The position numbers were made by a program, and so were the translations under genes. From the sequence record MG589383: DNA of 64,000 nucleotides, one strand, 5' to 3'. Below, piece after piece: positions 496-44,150 of the stretch; within the stretch, counting starts at the first letter, position 1; the number at the start of each line of letters is the position of its first letter. This stretch comes from Shigella phage phi25-307. The notes beneath the pieces were generated by a model. That model did no database searches. It was not told where the DNA came from and saw only the letters and a list, made by a program, of their open reading frames with translations.

Positions 496-894
496 TTACA
501 CTCTATTGCTTGACGCTAACTGAAGTTTAATTTGTTCAATATCGTCAGGGTTGTCTACGACCGAAAATCTAATCTCTACTATAACCGTATAGTCATCATA
601 TACTGGCGTTACACTTACAGAAAGTTTGTCGATGCGTGGCTCGTAGTTACGAACAGCTGCCTGGATATTACGCTCAATCGTATCGGCTGTAAGTGGTGTC
701 ATGTTCTCGAAAAGTTCGTCGACCAAATCGCATCCAAATTCAGGGTCGAAGGGGCGTGAGCCTTTTCTAGTTGTCACTATGCCAAGAAGACTATTTTTAA
801 TAGAACGAAGTCCTACAGAACGAGCAACGTCCTTGTTCCAATCCATACGCATTTCTGGGTCGATATCTGAATAAAGTTTATTGATATTAGACAT
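496..894 (-). CDS. 25: baseplate wedge subunit gp25 (132 aa)
   Basis: Translation collinear with T4 gp25 (NINKLYSDIDPEM...IEQIKLQLASSNRV), same length. Confidence 0.93.
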   Translation of the reverse strand: MSNINKLYSDIDPEMRMDWNKDVARSVGLRSIKNSLLGIVTTRKGSRPFDPEFGCDLVDELFENMTPLTADTIERNIQAAVRNYEPRIDKLSVSVTPVYDDYTVIVEIRFSVVDNPDDIEQIKLQLASSNRV

Positions 895-1520
895 TATAGT
901 AACTCAAAGAATTCTTTGAGGCCTCGTATTGTGTGAACGTGTGACGCCCCACATTTGGGACATTTAATAGGGGTTGCCAGATAAATTGATGGCGATACTA
1001 AAAGATTTTTAATATTGATCATGTCATCTTCTGTTATAAGGCCGTAAAGGTCGTTTATTTCTGCTTCAGTTAAATCTTCAACAGGGATGGACTCTCCATT
1101 GACAAAAACGGCCTCAATACATGAAGCAATCATTAATGCGATATTTTTATCATCAAATAATTTAGGTTGACGGAACTTAATTTTAATACCACTGAACGAA
1201 TACCAGGGGTCGGCCTGTTCATCTAATTGAGTGTGCAATAAATTCATATAGACTTGAAATGAATGCCCACAGGAACAATTCCAGGTGTGTTCTTGATTCA
1301 CTTCACCTAATGAATGTGCCCACAGATTTACCAACAATAGCTCTGCTTCTTGTTTAGTCAAGTTTTTAGCGTTAGAGCAATTAGTGATAATATTGTTCAC
1401 TGCTGATTCAATAGTACCGGTAGCCCGCGCACCTATGAGTCCTAAATATTCTTTTAAAGTAAAGGCTCTACAATTCACTTCTTTATCGCCTAAACGTACG
1501 GTAAACGTATATTTGTACAT
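894..1520 (-). CDS. 26: baseplate hub subunit gp26 (208 aa)
   Basis: Size and position between 25 and 51 as in T4; late promoter TATAAATA about 20 nt upstream on minus strand. Confidence 0.85.
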   Translation of the reverse strand: MYKYTFTVRLGDKEVNCRAFTLKEYLGLIGARATGTIESAVNNIITNCSNAKNLTKQEAELLLVNLWAHSLGEVNQEHTWNCSCGHSFQVYMNLLHTQLDEQADPWYSFSGIKIKFRQPKLFDDKNIALMIASCIEAVFVNGESIPVEDLTEAEINDLYGLITEDDMINIKNLLVSPSIYLATPIKCPKCGASHVHTIRGLKEFFELL

Positions 1521-13796: not shown

Positions 13797-13983
13797 GTTT
13801 CAACCCTTTAATAGGAGATAACTCTTTACCCATACGTATGTCAGAAGTCCAATCAACCCATTGAACAGCATACGCTTCATTGATAATTCCAGCGCCGGTT
13901 TTAAATTCAGGGAGAACTTTAAAAATCACCCCAGGAATTCCAACACCTTTTAATTGAACTGTTTGTGCTATTAAAAATTTCAT
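13786..13983 (-). CDS. hypothetical protein (65 aa)
   Basis: ORF preceded by early promoter at about 13995-14036. Confidence 0.45.
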   Translation of the reverse strand: MKFLIAQTVQLKGVGIPGVIFKVLPEFKTGAGIINEAYAVQWVDWTSDIRMGKELSPIKGLKHVE

Positions 13984-23808: not shown

Positions 23809-23841
23809 AAATTGTACCACAATCCTTGTGGCGTGTAAACT
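23809..23841 (-). promoter_or_regulatory. T4-type early promoter upstream of rnlA (-35 TTTACA / -10 TACAAT)
   Basis: 17-nt spacer; overlaps denA stop codon. Confidence 0.45.
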
Positions 23842-24250
23842 ACTTTTTCTTATGTTGGATATTCCAAGGCGGGTTGAACTTTTTGATAAAAAGCGGTTCT
23901 TCAAGGTCCATTGTTGCGATGGTCATTGAACCAAGTTCGTTGGTGACTGAAAGGTCAAAACATTGGCGGGCCCAGAATTCAACCTTTTTGCCTTGCATTA
24001 AGGCATCCAAAATCATAAGTGATTTTCTTGAATCTGAAGTCTGGTCTTTTCGATTTATGGCTGTTCGATAATAGTTAATGCGTTTCTTTAAATTCTTGGT
24101 TTTACCAATATACACAAGTTCGTCATCTATAGCAATAGCGTATATGACATTTTTCTTATTAGGGACATCAACTGTTTTAATTGTTGCATCTTCTAATAGC
24201 TCCAATTCTGTATATTTAATAAAGGAATATTCGGCGGCAATATCTTTCAT
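23840..24250 (-). CDS. denA: endonuclease II, GIY-YIG family (136 aa)
   Basis: Collinear with T4 DenA (YSFIKYTELEL, NVIYAIAI.DELVYIGKTKNL.KRINYYRTAINRKD, FNPPWNIQHKKK). Confidence 0.9.
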   Translation of the reverse strand: MKDIAAEYSFIKYTELELLEDATIKTVDVPNKKNVIYAIAIDDELVYIGKTKNLKKRINYYRTAINRKDQTSDSRKSLMILDALMQGKKVEFWARQCFDLSVTNELGSMTIATMDLEEPLFIKKFNPPWNIQHKKK

Positions 24251-24276
24251 AATAAAGTGGGACCGAAGTCCCGTCC

Positions 24277-25464
24277 TTAGAAATATTTTTTGTATGAATT
24301 GATTACATTTTGGTCTACATCATTATCAATTTGTGCGACAAGATAAGAACTGATTTCAACTTCCTGAGGAGCTGCTTGAACTAAATCAGAGTTCAGATAT
24401 TCACGAATCCAAGGATATGGATGCTTGGTCGGAGCATCAGTGATTGGGCATGGTAAACCACACTGTTTCATACGAGACACAGTCAAGTAATCAACAAAAG
24501 CACACATACTCTGCGTATTGATACCTGGGCATGTACCGTTTTTAAAGAGGTGTGCAGCCCATTCCTTCTCTTGTCTATTTACTTCCATAAAAATGTCAAC
24601 TGCTTCTTGTTCACATTCTTTAGCAATTTGAACCCACTCATCACCATCAGTACCAGATTGAAGTTGACGGATAATGTACTGAGTACCCTTGAGGTGGAGT
24701 TGTTCGTCACGAGCAATGAACTTCATAATCTTTGCATTACCTTCCATAATTTCCATATTTTTATGGAAGTTGAAAGTACATGCAAATGATACGTAAAAAC
24801 GAATAGCTTCTAAGGCATTGATAACATGCAAACAGAGATAAAGAGACTTCATTAAATCACGCTTGGCGTTAAACATTATTTCTTCATACATCTCAATATC
24901 ATTCTGCTGGCATGAGCCTATTGAACGCTCATAATCTTCCTTAGCGTTTTCCCAATAACGAGTTTTAACCAGAACATCATCGTAATATTTACCTATTGAT
25001 TCAGCTCGTTTCATGATTGCTTCGTCTAATACAATTTCATCAAATACCTTAGATGGGTCCGTATAAAGATTTCGCATAATATGAGTATACGAACGAGAGT
25101 GAATAGTTTCACTGAATGTCCATGTTGCAACCCACGTATCTAATGAAGGGTCAGAAATCAGTGCCATAAGTACCGCAGATGGGGCCCTGCCTTGGATAGA
25201 ATCTAATAATGATTGATACTTAAGATTGTTTGTAAAGATGTCCTGTTGGAACTGAGGAAGCTTATTGAACTGCGCAGAGTCCAACATCAAGTTTACCTCT
25301 TCTGGGCGCCAAAAAAACGATAATTGCTTTTCGGTCAAATCTTCAAAAACTTTATGGCGTTGAATATCATAACGCGCAATACCAAGACCAGAACCAAAGA
25401 ACATCGGTTCATTCAAAACATCAACTTGTTGTGTGTTAAAAACTGTACTCATTATATTTCTCAC
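24277..25464 (-). CDS. nrdB: ribonucleotide reductase small (beta) subunit (395 aa), uninterrupted
   Basis: Size and synteny with T4 NrdB; continuous reading frame, no intron-sized gap. Confidence 0.88.
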   Translation of the reverse strand: MRNIMSTVFNTQQVDVLNEPMFFGSGLGIARYDIQRHKVFEDLTEKQLSFFWRPEEVNLMLDSAQFNKLPQFQQDIFTNNLKYQSLLDSIQGRAPSAVLMALISDPSLDTWVATWTFSETIHSRSYTHIMRNLYTDPSKVFDEIVLDEAIMKRAESIGKYYDDVLVKTRYWENAKEDYERSIGSCQQNDIEMYEEIMFNAKRDLMKSLYLCLHVINALEAIRFYVSFACTFNFHKNMEIMEGNAKIMKFIARDEQLHLKGTQYIIRQLQSGTDGDEWVQIAKECEQEAVDIFMEVNRQEKEWAAHLFKNGTCPGINTQSMCAFVDYLTVSRMKQCGLPCPITDAPTKHPYPWIREYLNSDLVQAAPQEVEISSYLVAQIDNDVDQNVINSYKKYF

Positions 25465-25504
25465 TTAGTTTAACTCATCCATGAGTAAATTATAATCAAA
25501 AGTC

Positions 25505-27760
25505 TTAAAGCTTACAAGCAGAACAATCTTCAGCTTTAGGTGTTTCTAATTCGTAGTCATCTGTACCTGACCCATCACGAGTGTTATGATAGTAGAGGTT
25601 TTTTCCGCCAAAGTACCAGAAGTAAAGTAGATCGTCAAGCATTACTGACATTGGTACTTTACCTTTCTCAAATACTGCAGGGTCATAGTAAGTATTAGCA
25701 GAAGCAGATTGGCACACCCATTTCAACATGATAGCAACTTGGGTCAAATAAGGTTTATTACCTTTCTTAGCAAGTTTCCACGCGTAGTCGTAAAGACTCA
25801 TGTTATGTTCTATATTAGGAACAACCTGACGGAAGTTGCCTTCTTTAGATTCTTTAATACTTACTGGACCGCGTGGGGGCTCAATCCCGTTTGTAGAGTT
25901 TGATACTTGACTGCTTGACTCACAAGGCATGAGTGCAGACAACGTTGAGTTACGAATTCCATGTTCTTTGAGTTCAGCTCGAAGTTCTTCCCAGTCACAG
26001 ACGTAGTTCGGGGCTGCGATTTGGTCAATCTTTTTATTGTACCAGTCGATAGGTAATTCGCCTCTAGACCATTTAGTGTCTGAATAATACTCGCAACATC
26101 CTTTTTCTTTGGCGAGTTTGATTGAAGCTTTGATAAGGCCATATTGCAATCTCTCAAACAATTCATGAGTCAAATCGTTAGCGTCTTCATATGAAGCAAA
26201 GTTGGAAGCTAACCATGCGGCATAGTTCGTAACACCAACACCGAGGTTTCGACGCTTTTTAGCTTTTAAAGCTTCTGGAACCGGATAATCTTGATAGTCT
26301 AACAGGTTATCAAGTGCACGTACTTGTACTTCAGCAAGTTCATTAATTTTATCTTGGTCTTGCCAATCAAATTTATCTAATACAAAAGCAGATAATGTGC
26401 ATAAACCAATTTCAGCATCAGGACCATTCACATCATTAGTTGGAATAGCGATTTCACAACATAAGTTACTCTGACGAATTGGAGCTTTTTCACGAATAAA
26501 TGGAGTGTAGTTATTCGTGTTATCAACAAACTGTGGATAAATTCGAGCAGTGCCAGAACGTTCAGTCATGAACAATTCAAAGAGTTCTAGTGCTTTTATT
26601 CTTTTCTTTCTGATTGTTGGGTCTTTTTCAGCTTTCTCATAAAGCTCACGGAATTTATCTTGATCTTCAAAGAACGAGTAGTATAGTTCGCCTGACATTT
26701 CGTGAGGGCTAAATAAAGTAATATAATCATTTTTACCAAGGCGTTCCATCATAAGGTCATTAATCTGAATTCCGTAGTCCATATGACGAATACGGTTTTC
26801 ATCCACGCCTTTGTTATTTTTCAGAACTAATAGGTTCTCTACTTCTAAGTGCCACATCGGATAATACGCTGTAGCAGCACCACCACGAATACCACCTTGA
26901 GAACAAGATTTTACTGCAGTTTGGAAATGTTTCCAGAATGGAATAACACCTGTATGTCGAACTTCACCCATACCGATCTTAGAACCTTCTGCACGAAGCA
27001 TACCAACGTTGATACCGATACCAGCTCGTTTAGAAATATATTCAATAATTGATGCTGAAGTTTTGTTAATAGATTTTAACGAATCACCGGCTTCAATAAC
27101 TACACAACTAGAGAACTGGCGAGTTGGAGTACGAGCACCTGCCATAATTGGAGTAGGCAATGAAACTTGATGAGTAGAAACGGCATCATAAAAACGAATA
27201 ATATGTTTCAAACGGTCGTGAGTTTCGTCTTGATGTAAGGCCATACCAATAGCCATGATAGCAAACTGTGGAGTTTCATAAATCTTCCCAGTTGTTTTAT
27301 CTTTAACTAGATATTTTTCTTTAAGCTGCATAGCACCAGCATAAGTCAGGTCAAAGTCTCGTTCATGTTTAATCTGTGAATCGAGATAAATGATTTCTTC
27401 TGCTGAATATTGAGACAACAACTCAGGGTCATATTTGCCTTCATTAACACAGTAAGAAATATGGTCGATAAAAGCAGGTGGTTCAAACTGTCCGTATACA
27501 TCTTTACGAAGTGCAAACATTAGCCCTTTGGCGGCGACATACTGATAATCAGGTTCTTCGACAGAAATCAAGTTAGCTGCAACTTTAATACAAATCTTCT
27601 GAATATCTTTGGTGCTCATCCCATCGACAAGATGGGTCTTAATTTCTTCGTACAATTCATATGGATCAATTTGTGTTCCTTCACATTGCCAAGTTAAGAC
27701 TTGAATAATTTTCTGTGCATCAAAATTTTGGGATACACCACTGCTCTTAGTTACTTGCAT
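25505..27760 (-). CDS. nrdA: ribonucleotide reductase large (alpha) subunit (751 aa)
   Basis: Size (T4 NrdA 754 aa) and synteny; class I RNR C-terminal cysteines. Confidence 0.9.
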   Translation of the reverse strand: MQVTKSSGVSQNFDAQKIIQVLTWQCEGTQIDPYELYEEIKTHLVDGMSTKDIQKICIKVAANLISVEEPDYQYVAAKGLMFALRKDVYGQFEPPAFIDHISYCVNEGKYDPELLSQYSAEEIIYLDSQIKHERDFDLTYAGAMQLKEKYLVKDKTTGKIYETPQFAIMAIGMALHQDETHDRLKHIIRFYDAVSTHQVSLPTPIMAGARTPTRQFSSCVVIEAGDSLKSINKTSASIIEYISKRAGIGINVGMLRAEGSKIGMGEVRHTGVIPFWKHFQTAVKSCSQGGIRGGAATAYYPMWHLEVENLLVLKNNKGVDENRIRHMDYGIQINDLMMERLGKNDYITLFSPHEMSGELYYSFFEDQDKFRELYEKAEKDPTIRKKRIKALELFELFMTERSGTARIYPQFVDNTNNYTPFIREKAPIRQSNLCCEIAIPTNDVNGPDAEIGLCTLSAFVLDKFDWQDQDKINELAEVQVRALDNLLDYQDYPVPEALKAKKRRNLGVGVTNYAAWLASNFASYEDANDLTHELFERLQYGLIKASIKLAKEKGCCEYYSDTKWSRGELPIDWYNKKIDQIAAPNYVCDWEELRAELKEHGIRNSTLSALMPCESSSQVSNSTNGIEPPRGPVSIKESKEGNFRQVVPNIEHNMSLYDYAWKLAKKGNKPYLTQVAIMLKWVCQSASANTYYDPAVFEKGKVPMSVMLDDLLYFWYFGGKNLYYHNTRDGSGTDDYELETPKAEDCSACKL

Positions 27761-43300: not shown

Positions 43301-43568
43301 CGTGAGTGGTGCTACTGCATCGTCGAATATGGCCAAAACTTCTTCAGACGGTGCCCACACCCATAGTTGGTCTGGTACTACTAGCACCACAGGTAACCAT
43401 GCCCACACCGTAGGTATTGGCGCCCATACTCACACCGTAGGTATTGGCGCTCACACCCATTCGGTTGCAATTGGTTCACATGGTCATACAATAACTGTAA
43501 ATGCCACAGGAAATACAGAAAACACAGTTAAAAACGTTGCTTTTAACTATATCGTTCGTTTAGCATAA
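40311..43568 (+). CDS. 37: long tail fibre distal subunit / receptor-recognising gp37 (1085 aa)
   Basis: Size, synteny, C-terminal HxH repeat region, followed by T4-type gp38 gene. Confidence 0.9.
43407..43514 (+). repeat. four tandem 27-nt coding repeats in gene 37 encoding H-x-H-[TS]-[VI]-x-[IV]-[GN]-x units
   Basis: CATGCCCACACCGTAGGTATTGGCGCC / CATACTCACACCGTAGGTATTGGCGCT and two degenerate copies, in frame. Confidence 0.8.
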
Positions 43569-43574
43569 GGAGAA

Positions 43575-43593
43575 GGGACTTCTGTCCCTTTTT
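43575..43593 (+). terminator. terminator after gene 37 (GGGAC-TTCT-GTCCC, T-tract)
   Basis: Hairpin then TTTTTAT, 7 nt after gene 37 stop. Confidence 0.55.
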
Positions 43594-43598
43594 ATAAT

Positions 43599-44150
43599 AT
43601 GAAACTCTATCACTATTATTTTGACACTAAAGAATTTTACAAAGAAGAAAATTATAAACCATTAAAAGGCGTAGGATTTCCAGCTCATTCGACACCAAAA
43701 AAACCTTTAGACCCTAAAGAAGGCTATGCTGTTGTATTTGATGAACGCGAACAAGAATGGGTATATGTTGAAGACCATCGTGGAAAAACAGTATGGACTT
43801 ATGATAAGCAAAAAATTGTTATTGACACTCCAGGTGCTCTTCAAAATGTTACTACAGAAGAACCTGGTGAATTTGACATTTGGACCGGCGACGGGTGGAA
43901 GGAAGATGAAGCATATAAACGCGTAGTTCAACGTGATAAGAAAATTCATGAACTCTATAAATTATTCAGTGTTTTAAGTTCTCTTATTGACGCAGAGGTT
44001 GCTAATAGAGAAGAAAAACGAAAATTTAAAGAGCTCAAAAAATTCTTTGCCCTTTTAGAAAAACATGAACATCTTGGTGGTGAATTCCCTAAATTCCCTG
44101 ACCTTGAAAACAAATCTATTGTCAAAGCGATTATAAATATCTTTAAGTAA
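43599..44150 (+). CDS. 38: gp38, T4-type tail fibre assembly chaperone (183 aa)
   Basis: Collinear with T4 gp38 (YHYYFDTKEFYKEENYKP, EGYAVVFDER, FALLEKHEHLGGEFP), same length. Confidence 0.88.
   Translation: MKLYHYYFDTKEFYKEENYKPLKGVGFPAHSTPKKPLDPKEGYAVVFDEREQEWVYVEDHRGKTVWTYDKQKIVIDTPGALQNVTTEEPGEFDIWTGDGWKEDEAYKRVVQRDKKIHELYKLFSVLSSLIDAEVANREEKRKFKELKKFFALLEKHEHLGGEFPKFPDLENKSIVKAIINIFK
44132..44139 (+). promoter_or_regulatory. late promoter TATAAATA for holin gene t (inside 3-prime end of gene 38)
   Basis: Exact consensus 21 nt upstream of ATG 44160. Confidence 0.6.

Follow-up and report, generated by a model that had tools for sequence, protein, structure and literature searches.

The DNA analysed here, referred to as the window, is a 64,000-nucleotide (nt) stretch of Shigella phage phi25-307 (sequence record MG589383), and our subject is a short RNA hairpin at the junction between two of its genes, nrdB and denA, together with the ribosome-binding signals that flank it. 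The window comes from an RB69-like phage of the T4 type, genus Mosigvirus, and is 99.6% identical to Escherichia phage F2 and 97.3% identical to RB69 over the 901 nt compared. According to the list of open reading frames (ORFs), genes on the minus strand follow one another in the order nrdA, nrdB, denA and rnlA. The nrdB gene (24277..25452, minus strand) is intronless and encodes the small subunit of ribonucleotide reductase, as indicated by its ORF, by a match to the Pfam family Ribonuc_red_sm (E = 1e-37) and by the annotation of nrdB in RB69 and F2. Downstream of it lies denA (23840..24250, minus strand), an ORF of 136 amino acids (aa) that matches Pfam GIY-YIG and encodes endonuclease II, a member of the GIY-YIG family. 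The DenA proteins of the Mosigvirus phages are 100% identical.

In the junction between the two genes, the RNA reads UAUUUC, UAAGGA, C, GGGAC, UUCG, GUCCC, ACUUUAUU and AUG AAA, the nrdB codons before the UAA being AAA UAU UUC. All of the coordinates that follow for this junction are on the minus strand. The nrdB stop codon UAA (24279-24277) is evident from the sequence, and it is overlapped by a Shine-Dalgarno (SD) element, UAAGGA (24279-24274), which was recognised from its sequence, its duplex energy with the 3' end of 16S rRNA and its conservation. A single unpaired C separates UAAGGA from the hairpin GGGAC-UUCG-GUCCC (24272-24259), for which we rely on sequence, folding energy (dG) and covariation. 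The hairpin consists of a 5' arm (24272-24268), a C(UUCG)G tetraloop (24267-24264) and a 3' arm (24263-24259). It is followed by an 8-nt U-rich spacer, ACUUUAUU (24258-24251), which is free of SD sequence (SD energy +2.8 kcal/mol), and then by the denA start codon AUG (24250-24248). The UUCG loop is closed by a C-G pair and the hairpin is intercistronic and on the transcribed strand, which places it in the class of C(UUCG)G hairpins. The initial annotation of this DNA, made from the sequence alone, had described the same minus-strand order of stop codon and SD, hairpin, spacer and AUG, and that order stands; its stem also took in the flanking C and A, which are unpaired, so that only five pairs remain. 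It had put the SD about 25 nt from the AUG. The SD is indeed distant, and the exact linear gap is 23 nt from the last A of AAGGA, or 24 nt from its GG.

The assignment of the start codon matters for everything that follows. In the ORF list of the window there is no ATG, GTG or TTG between the upstream in-frame stop and the ATG at 24250; this ATG is therefore the first possible start after the stop, and denA has no alternative upstream start. The N-terminus of DenA (MK-IA-E-SF) is conserved across lineages, which confirms ATG 24250 as the start. Upstream of it, the SD duplex energy reaches -8.7 kcal/mol in the interval from -45 to -18, versus -2.4 kcal/mol between -20 and -4. Together with the unfavourable energy of the spacer, this weak near value bears out the earlier statement that AAGGA is the sole SD-like element upstream of denA. 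An alternative start with a conventional SD was also sought, and by the ORF list and the SD energy scan there is none in the window.

On its own, the denA hairpin has a predicted dG of -7.5 kcal/mol, and it is present in both the minimum-free-energy (MFE) fold and the centroid fold. The 41-nt local fold of the junction has a z score of -1.9, and 10 of 200 shuffled sequences fold equally well. On the window sequence alone the hairpin therefore does not exceed chance, and what makes it significant is that it is conserved and covaries among relatives.

For this comparison, 116 loci from annotated phage genomes, IMG/VR and metagenomes were reduced to about 27 distinct nrdB-denA junctions, representing Tequatrovirus, Mosigvirus, Moonvirus and Bragavirus (by the taxonomy of the records) as well as further lineages; labels of the type L093 are given below where these need to be told apart. 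The junctions have a common order: nrdB stop codon and SD, GC stem, tetraloop, U-rich spacer without an SD, and AUG. The SD takes the form AAGGA, AGGAG or AAGGU and either overlaps the nrdB UAA or lies just 3' of it, with AAGG or AGGAG found upstream of the stem in 25 of the 27 junction types. Stems are GC-rich and comprise 4-7 Watson-Crick pairs. Loops are mostly UUCG, with GCAA or GUAA in the T4 group; UUAG, UUUG and one 5-nt loop also occur. The spacer measures 6-10 nt in all hairpin-bearing lineages. At the same site T4 has UAAGGAG, UGGGCC, GCAA, GGCCCA, UUUUAUU and AUG. Between T4 and the window one stem pair is altered on both sides (A-U to C-G), and UUCG is swapped for a GNRA loop, that is, one extra-stable tetraloop class for another.

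When the 27 junctions were aligned over a 7-pair helix, 89.9% of the cells were paired, and 28 cells carried changes on both sides. Pair 15-22 is GC in 18 junctions, CG in 6, AU in 2 and GU in 1, pair 12-25 is GC in 15 and AU in 11, and the closing pair is C-G in 26 of the 27. None of 500 shuffles reached the observed covariation, a result that is not a formal probability given that the aligned junctions are phylogenetically related, and every slid register scored much lower. Several of the stem variants arise on different sequence backgrounds. The G-U pairs and the UUCG and GNRA loops fit RNA of the sense strand only. An element on the antisense strand was considered and discarded: there the loop would read CGAA or UUGC, no G-U pair would survive and no U tract comes after the stem. 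A site for the RegB nuclease (GGAG) was likewise set aside as a conserved feature, since, judging from the sequences, it is found in T4 and a few lineages and the window has GGAC. Rfam holds no relevant family for the hairpin, and the search returned only sub-threshold microRNA noise.

To place the denA site among the other genes of the window, 87 putative genes were scanned for a weak SD at -20 to -4 combined with a strong SD at -45 to -18. Among the genes with a weak near SD, the strongest far SDs belong to gene 38 (-9.3 kcal/mol) and denA (-8.7 kcal/mol), and gene 25 was also recovered (-5.9 kcal/mol). The genes at 13983 and 19636 also have a far SD and were rejected as they have no clean hairpin between SD and AUG. 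The gene 37-38 junction (43566..43601, plus strand), identified by fold and geometry and with a split SD according to the literature (PMC3014915, PMC7297116), consists of a stop codon and SD, UAAGGAG (43566-43572), the hairpin AAGGGAC-UUCU-GUCCCUU (43573-43590), the spacer UUUAUAAU (43591-43598) and an AUG at 43599. The gene that starts there is the gene 38 homologue, of 183 aa with a tail-fibre assembly domain. The gene 26-25 junction (892..925, minus strand), again identified by fold and geometry, has GAGG (925-922), a C, the hairpin CUCAAAG-AAUU-CUUUGAG (920-903), the spacer UUACUAUA (902-895) and an AUG (894-892), which starts the gene 25 homologue (132 aa; GPW_gp25, E = 5e-19).

These three sites are closely matched in their dimensions. 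At both denA and gene 38 the GG of the SD lies 2 nt from the stem and the stem 8 nt from the AUG, for a folded spacing of 10 nt; at gene 25 the corresponding values are 1, 8 and 9 nt. Across 25 lineages the folded GG-to-AUG spacing of the denA site has a median of 9 nt (range 6-14). The median SD energy upstream of the stem is -5.6 kcal/mol among the denA lineages, and the best value in any of their spacers is -0.1 kcal/mol. In L093 the stem has 7 base pairs (bp) and the flanks are the same as in its 5-pair relative L023, and in L104 the SD is shifted off the stop codon (UAAAUUAGGAGA) with the 2-nt distance to the stem kept. Both patterns are expected if the hairpin is looped out and it is left to the flanks to set the spacing. 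At least ten C(UUCG)G hairpins lie on the same strand of the window, and where a UUCG hairpin stands just upstream of a gene (55980, 51366 and 14681) the SD is placed 3' of it, so the upstream position of the SD at denA is not forced. The denA junction thus combines the features by which a split SD is recognised, namely a far SD, no near SD, a hairpin lying wholly between SD and AUG, a functional folded spacing and a conserved structure with compensatory changes.

Some relatives lack this arrangement. In L025/L101 and in L064 the module of SD, hairpin and spacer has been lost, and the nrdB stop overlaps the denA start in an ATGA with no SD visible. These are two separate lineages and natural deletion variants, useful for testing coupling. 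Aeromonas phages (L036/L037) also have an ATGA overlap, with an upstream gene different from nrdB. In Krischvirus (L034/L035, Brandy, G37-3; 540-600) denA follows an unrelated gene of 132 aa, and the junction comprises UAAUAAGGUG and a strong terminator-like hairpin GGGCGGGAGAAAUCCCGCC, with a U tract and a conventional SD, GAGGAAAGGA, 3' of it. Ahead of that hairpin stands an SD-like UAAGGUG, which could be left over from a split site or be there by chance. At denA of ZPAH1 the SD is conventional. A far SD without a hairpin was seen in no examined lineage.

Taking the comparison of junctions and the analogy with genes 38 and 25 together, we consider that the denA hairpin element is probably a hairpin-bridged (split) ribosome binding site. 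The initial annotation had suggested such a site on the model of T4 gene 38, and the conserved order, the covariation and the geometry shared with genes 38 and 25 support it. Without folding, the linear gap of 24 nt would place the SD too far from the AUG to position a 30S subunit. Folding of the C(UUCG)G hairpin would loop out 14 nt, leaving about 2 + 8 nt of single strand and the base of the helix between SD and AUG, which is a functional spacing, and a 30S subunit bound to the SD could then set the AUG in its P site. If so, the hairpin would be tolerated by the 30S subunit, and its folding would be needed for denA translation. Since no denA promoter lies within the 26-nt junction, denA is most likely read from nrdB transcripts that cross it. 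Given the known footprint of the ribosome, one standing at the nrdB stop codon would mask the 5' arm of the hairpin; denA initiation would then probably follow the release of the terminating ribosome, a form of translational coupling. Coupling to nrdB termination of this kind is likely an addition to the split SD and not an alternative to it. Where the stem is longer and the U tract better, as in T4 and other lineages, a minority of transcripts may also stop at the hairpin. A terminator-like role and coupling to nrdB may both coexist with the split-SD role. As far as sequence analysis can judge, the split-SD reading is supported by all of the computational tests capable of refuting it.

Several observations weigh against a split site at denA. 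The case is drawn wholly from comparison and analogy, and the shuffle statistics overstate independence because the sequences are phylogenetically related. In two related junctions (L026 and L028) the SD, UAAGAGA, is poor (-2.9 kcal/mol) and continues into the stem. The existence of two hairpin-less ATGA lineages means that denA is translatable by pure coupling and that SD and hairpin are possibly less important than proposed. The MFE and centroid folds include an extension of the helix (UAAGG/CUUUA) that would partly hide the SD. Lastly, the GC-rich stem and U-rich stretch pass a permissive terminator pattern scan, at the minimum stem length, and the record of phage NR1 (LR990704; L001 725-747) labels the hairpin 'terminator'. 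A hairpin that serves mainly as an intrinsic terminator or attenuator and as a 3'-end stabiliser of nrdA-nrdB transcripts would account for these last two observations; on that view AAGGA would stand upstream of the stem by coincidence, and translation of denA would be poor or take some other route. The window contains many C(UUCG)G hairpins of a similar kind that look like terminators. The T4 version scores well for termination (d = +39.8 by the d'Aubenton-Carafa formula, as applied here reliable for ranking only), and in wild-type T4 infection the read density of denA is about 40% below that of nrdB. However, the NR1 feature sits on the strand opposite to nrdB and denA, where no U tract follows, and the window stem has only 5 pairs with a tail that begins AC, giving it the lowest d (-19.6) of the window's UUCG hairpins. 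Among lineages d varies from -20 to +40 while the geometry of SD, hairpin and AUG stays constant, and the experimentally studied gene 38 site is equally terminator-like (d = +10.8). There is no room for a promoter between the hairpin and denA, so denA needs read-through. In published RNA-seq of T4 taken 5 min after infection, the ratio of denA to nrdB read density is 0.59-0.93 in six conditions (PMC6024815 Table S1), density being reads divided by gene length, a rough measure owing to the nrdB intron and the short denA, and one that covers T4 only. These values are compatible with most T4 transcripts continuing into denA, even past the most terminator-like hairpin, and with weak attenuation at most. 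A terminator would also leave unexplained the conserved non-coding AAGG and the strictly SD-free spacer of 6-10 nt. We regard termination as the main function as unlikely, and a minor attenuator role in T4-like lineages as possible.

The same junction could be read with the hairpin playing no part in initiation, if ribosomes finishing nrdB slid from the UAA to the AUG 26 nt downstream and denA were translated purely by termination-reinitiation; the hairpin might then be, for example, only an mRNA stability element. This would fit with the overlap of the nrdB stop codon with the SD, with the position of denA directly after nrdB in all hairpin-bearing lineages, and with the ATGA overlap and lack of a visible SD in three independent hairpin-less lineages (L025/L101, L064 and the Aeromonas phages L036/L037). 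Reinitiation across 26 nt and a stable hairpin is less likely than across an overlap, however, and a mechanism independent of the SD leaves unexplained both the conservation of AAGG or AGGAG and the kept distance from SD to stem in L104. Pure reinitiation does not account for the constrained flank lengths either, and a stop codon within the SD is also found at the gene 37-38 junction, where the hairpin reportedly matters (PMC3014915). It seems quite improbable to us that reinitiation is the whole explanation. The helix extension seen in the folds suggests a different role again, in which UAAGG and CUUUA pair around the core stem to hide the SD and the hairpin acts as a repressor that keeps a toxic nuclease low; in T4 denA a stem of up to 10 pairs can be drawn if G-U pairs are allowed. 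The added pairs are weak ones, G-U and A-U, formed across an internal loop, and the fold predicted for gene 38, where the hairpin reportedly enhances initiation, contains the same extension. Across the junctions the SD columns pair with the U tail in 74.7% of cases, versus 78% in shuffles and 72-79% in slid registers, and there are no compensatory changes. Pairing at this level is not above the controls and thus follows from the composition of a purine-rich segment opposite a U-rich one. A selected, SD-sequestering extension was rejected on this ground, and we hold repression by SD hiding to be very unlikely. Pairing of the SD with the start-codon region was also looked for and none was found, in a test that used a poorly chosen structure.

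A hairpin-bridged SD would also make sense of the way denA has been annotated. The record of T4 strain 147 (KJ477685; L002 724-750) and the T4 RefSeq entry (NC_000866.4 137517-137951) both start denA at an in-frame GTG inside the hairpin, which gives a gene of 435 nt and 144 aa, where the ATG start would give 411 nt and 136 aa. The RB69 and NR1 records start denA at the ATG. The Moon record annotates a ribosome binding site (RBS) for other genes and none for denA. An alternative upstream start was rejected as a general feature, in-frame GUG or AUG codons being confined to T4, the JS98-like group and L100 and being out of frame or absent elsewhere, the window included; where present in frame, they sit 0-1 nt from the SD. 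The upstream GTG start is probably an annotation error, because relatives do not conserve this codon in frame and the window lacks it. Bridging of the SD by the hairpin would explain both the disagreement of gene callers on the denA start and the lack of RBS calls.

Some features of the surrounding DNA may be recorded here. Further C(UUCG)G hairpins were located on the minus strand at 58661-58646, 55980-55963, 51366-51351, 49025-49004, 47497-47480, 30602-30585, 15624-15605, 14681-14664 and 10350-10333; all are on the strand of the early and middle genes, and most have stems of 6-8 bp and U-rich tails and look like terminators. Upstream of nrdB, the gap to nrdA is only about 50 nt, and the T4 nrdB intron (I-TevIII) and mobE are both lacking in the window (24277-25505, minus strand). 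On the other side of denA, directly after its stop codon and before rnlA, there is a sigma-70-like promoter sequence (23811-23839, minus strand) with TTTACA, a 17-nt separation, TACAAT and an upstream TG. From these sequences rnlA probably has its own promoter and denA none.

A more far-reaching proposal, which we put forward as a long shot, is that this one hairpin couples nrdB translation, transcription into denA and the building of the denA ribosome site. A ribosome at the UAA would block formation of the hairpin behind RNA polymerase, so that transcription would enter denA only if nrdB were being translated; once the ribosome departed, the hairpin would fold and build the ribosome site of denA. 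If this were true, synthesis of a nuclease that attacks host DNA would be tied, both transcriptionally and translationally, to an enzyme that recycles the released nucleotides, and the module of stop-in-SD and hairpin, shared with the gene 37-38 junction, would be a reusable coupling device in T4-type phages.

The only sites of this kind named in reviews of 2010 and 2020 are those of genes 38 and 25 (PMC3014915, PMC7297116), and our full-text literature searches found no description of a split SD at denA and no reporter-fusion, toeprinting or chemical-probing data on it, with an earlier mention in the primary papers on genes 25 and 38 or in the T4 genome review possible. On the strength of sequence comparison and analogy, denA most likely joins these two T4 genes as a third example of a mechanism that has so far been demonstrated in them alone. 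Its natural variants in stem length, loop type and SD position would form a comparative series for studying the way in which a 30S subunit makes room for a helix lying between SD and P site. The finding also bears on what sets the level of a potentially toxic nuclease against that of nrdB. Its practical benefits are modest: start sites could be annotated better, and synthetic RBS design would gain a natural part.

Among known elements, the C(UUCG)G hairpins of T4 intercistronic regions, reportedly described by Tuerk et al. in 1988, have a loop and closing pair identical to those of the denA hairpin. The denA hairpin differs from most others of this class in the window, which have stems of 6-8 bp and runs of U and, where a gene is close, have the SD after the hairpin. 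The split RBS of E. coli thrS (Sacerdot et al. 1998, as described in PMC3936740) offers a parallel of another kind, in that a folded hairpin within the binding site is tolerated by the ribosome (PMC3936740). In thrS, however, two single-stranded segments bind the ribosome, and the hairpin stands between them, upstream of the SD; it is an operator that binds a repressor and does not bridge SD and AUG.

The closest relatives of the denA site are those of genes 38 and 25, where initiation is reportedly enhanced by the hairpin that separates SD from AUG, and translation reduced by mutations that destabilise it (PMC3014915, PMC7297116). The hairpin shortens the spacing from 22 to 5 nt in gene 38 and from 27 to 11 nt in gene 25 (PMC3014915). 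The split RBS of gene 25 was the work of Nivinskas et al. 1999 and Malys and Nivinskas 2009 (as summarised in PMC3014915), and the split SD of gene 38 is credited to Gold 1988 (as cited in PMC7297116 and PMC3014915). In the window, gene 25 resembles denA in having its SD 27 nt from the AUG (the T4 value; PMC3014915), a hairpin that fills the gap and a folded spacing of 9 nt, and its hairpin is likewise conserved in T-even relatives and absent in distant ones. It differs in its A/U-rich stem (CUCAAAG/CUUUGAG) and AAUU loop. Its start also reads UAAUG, so gene 26 may end there and its ribosomes read through the hairpin, whereas at denA the upstream ribosome stops before the hairpin. The likeness to gene 38 goes further. 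There too, the upstream UAA overlaps the SD (UAAGGAG) and is directly followed by a GC-rich hairpin with a 4-nt loop; the core GGGAC...GUCCC is the same as that of denA, and both sites have an 8-nt A/U spacer and a folded spacing of 10 nt. Gene 38, however, is a late gene encoded on the opposite strand, where it follows the tail-fibre gene 37, and its hairpin, whose function has been reported, has 7 Watson-Crick pairs (up to 10 with G-U pairs) and a UUCU rather than a UUCG loop.

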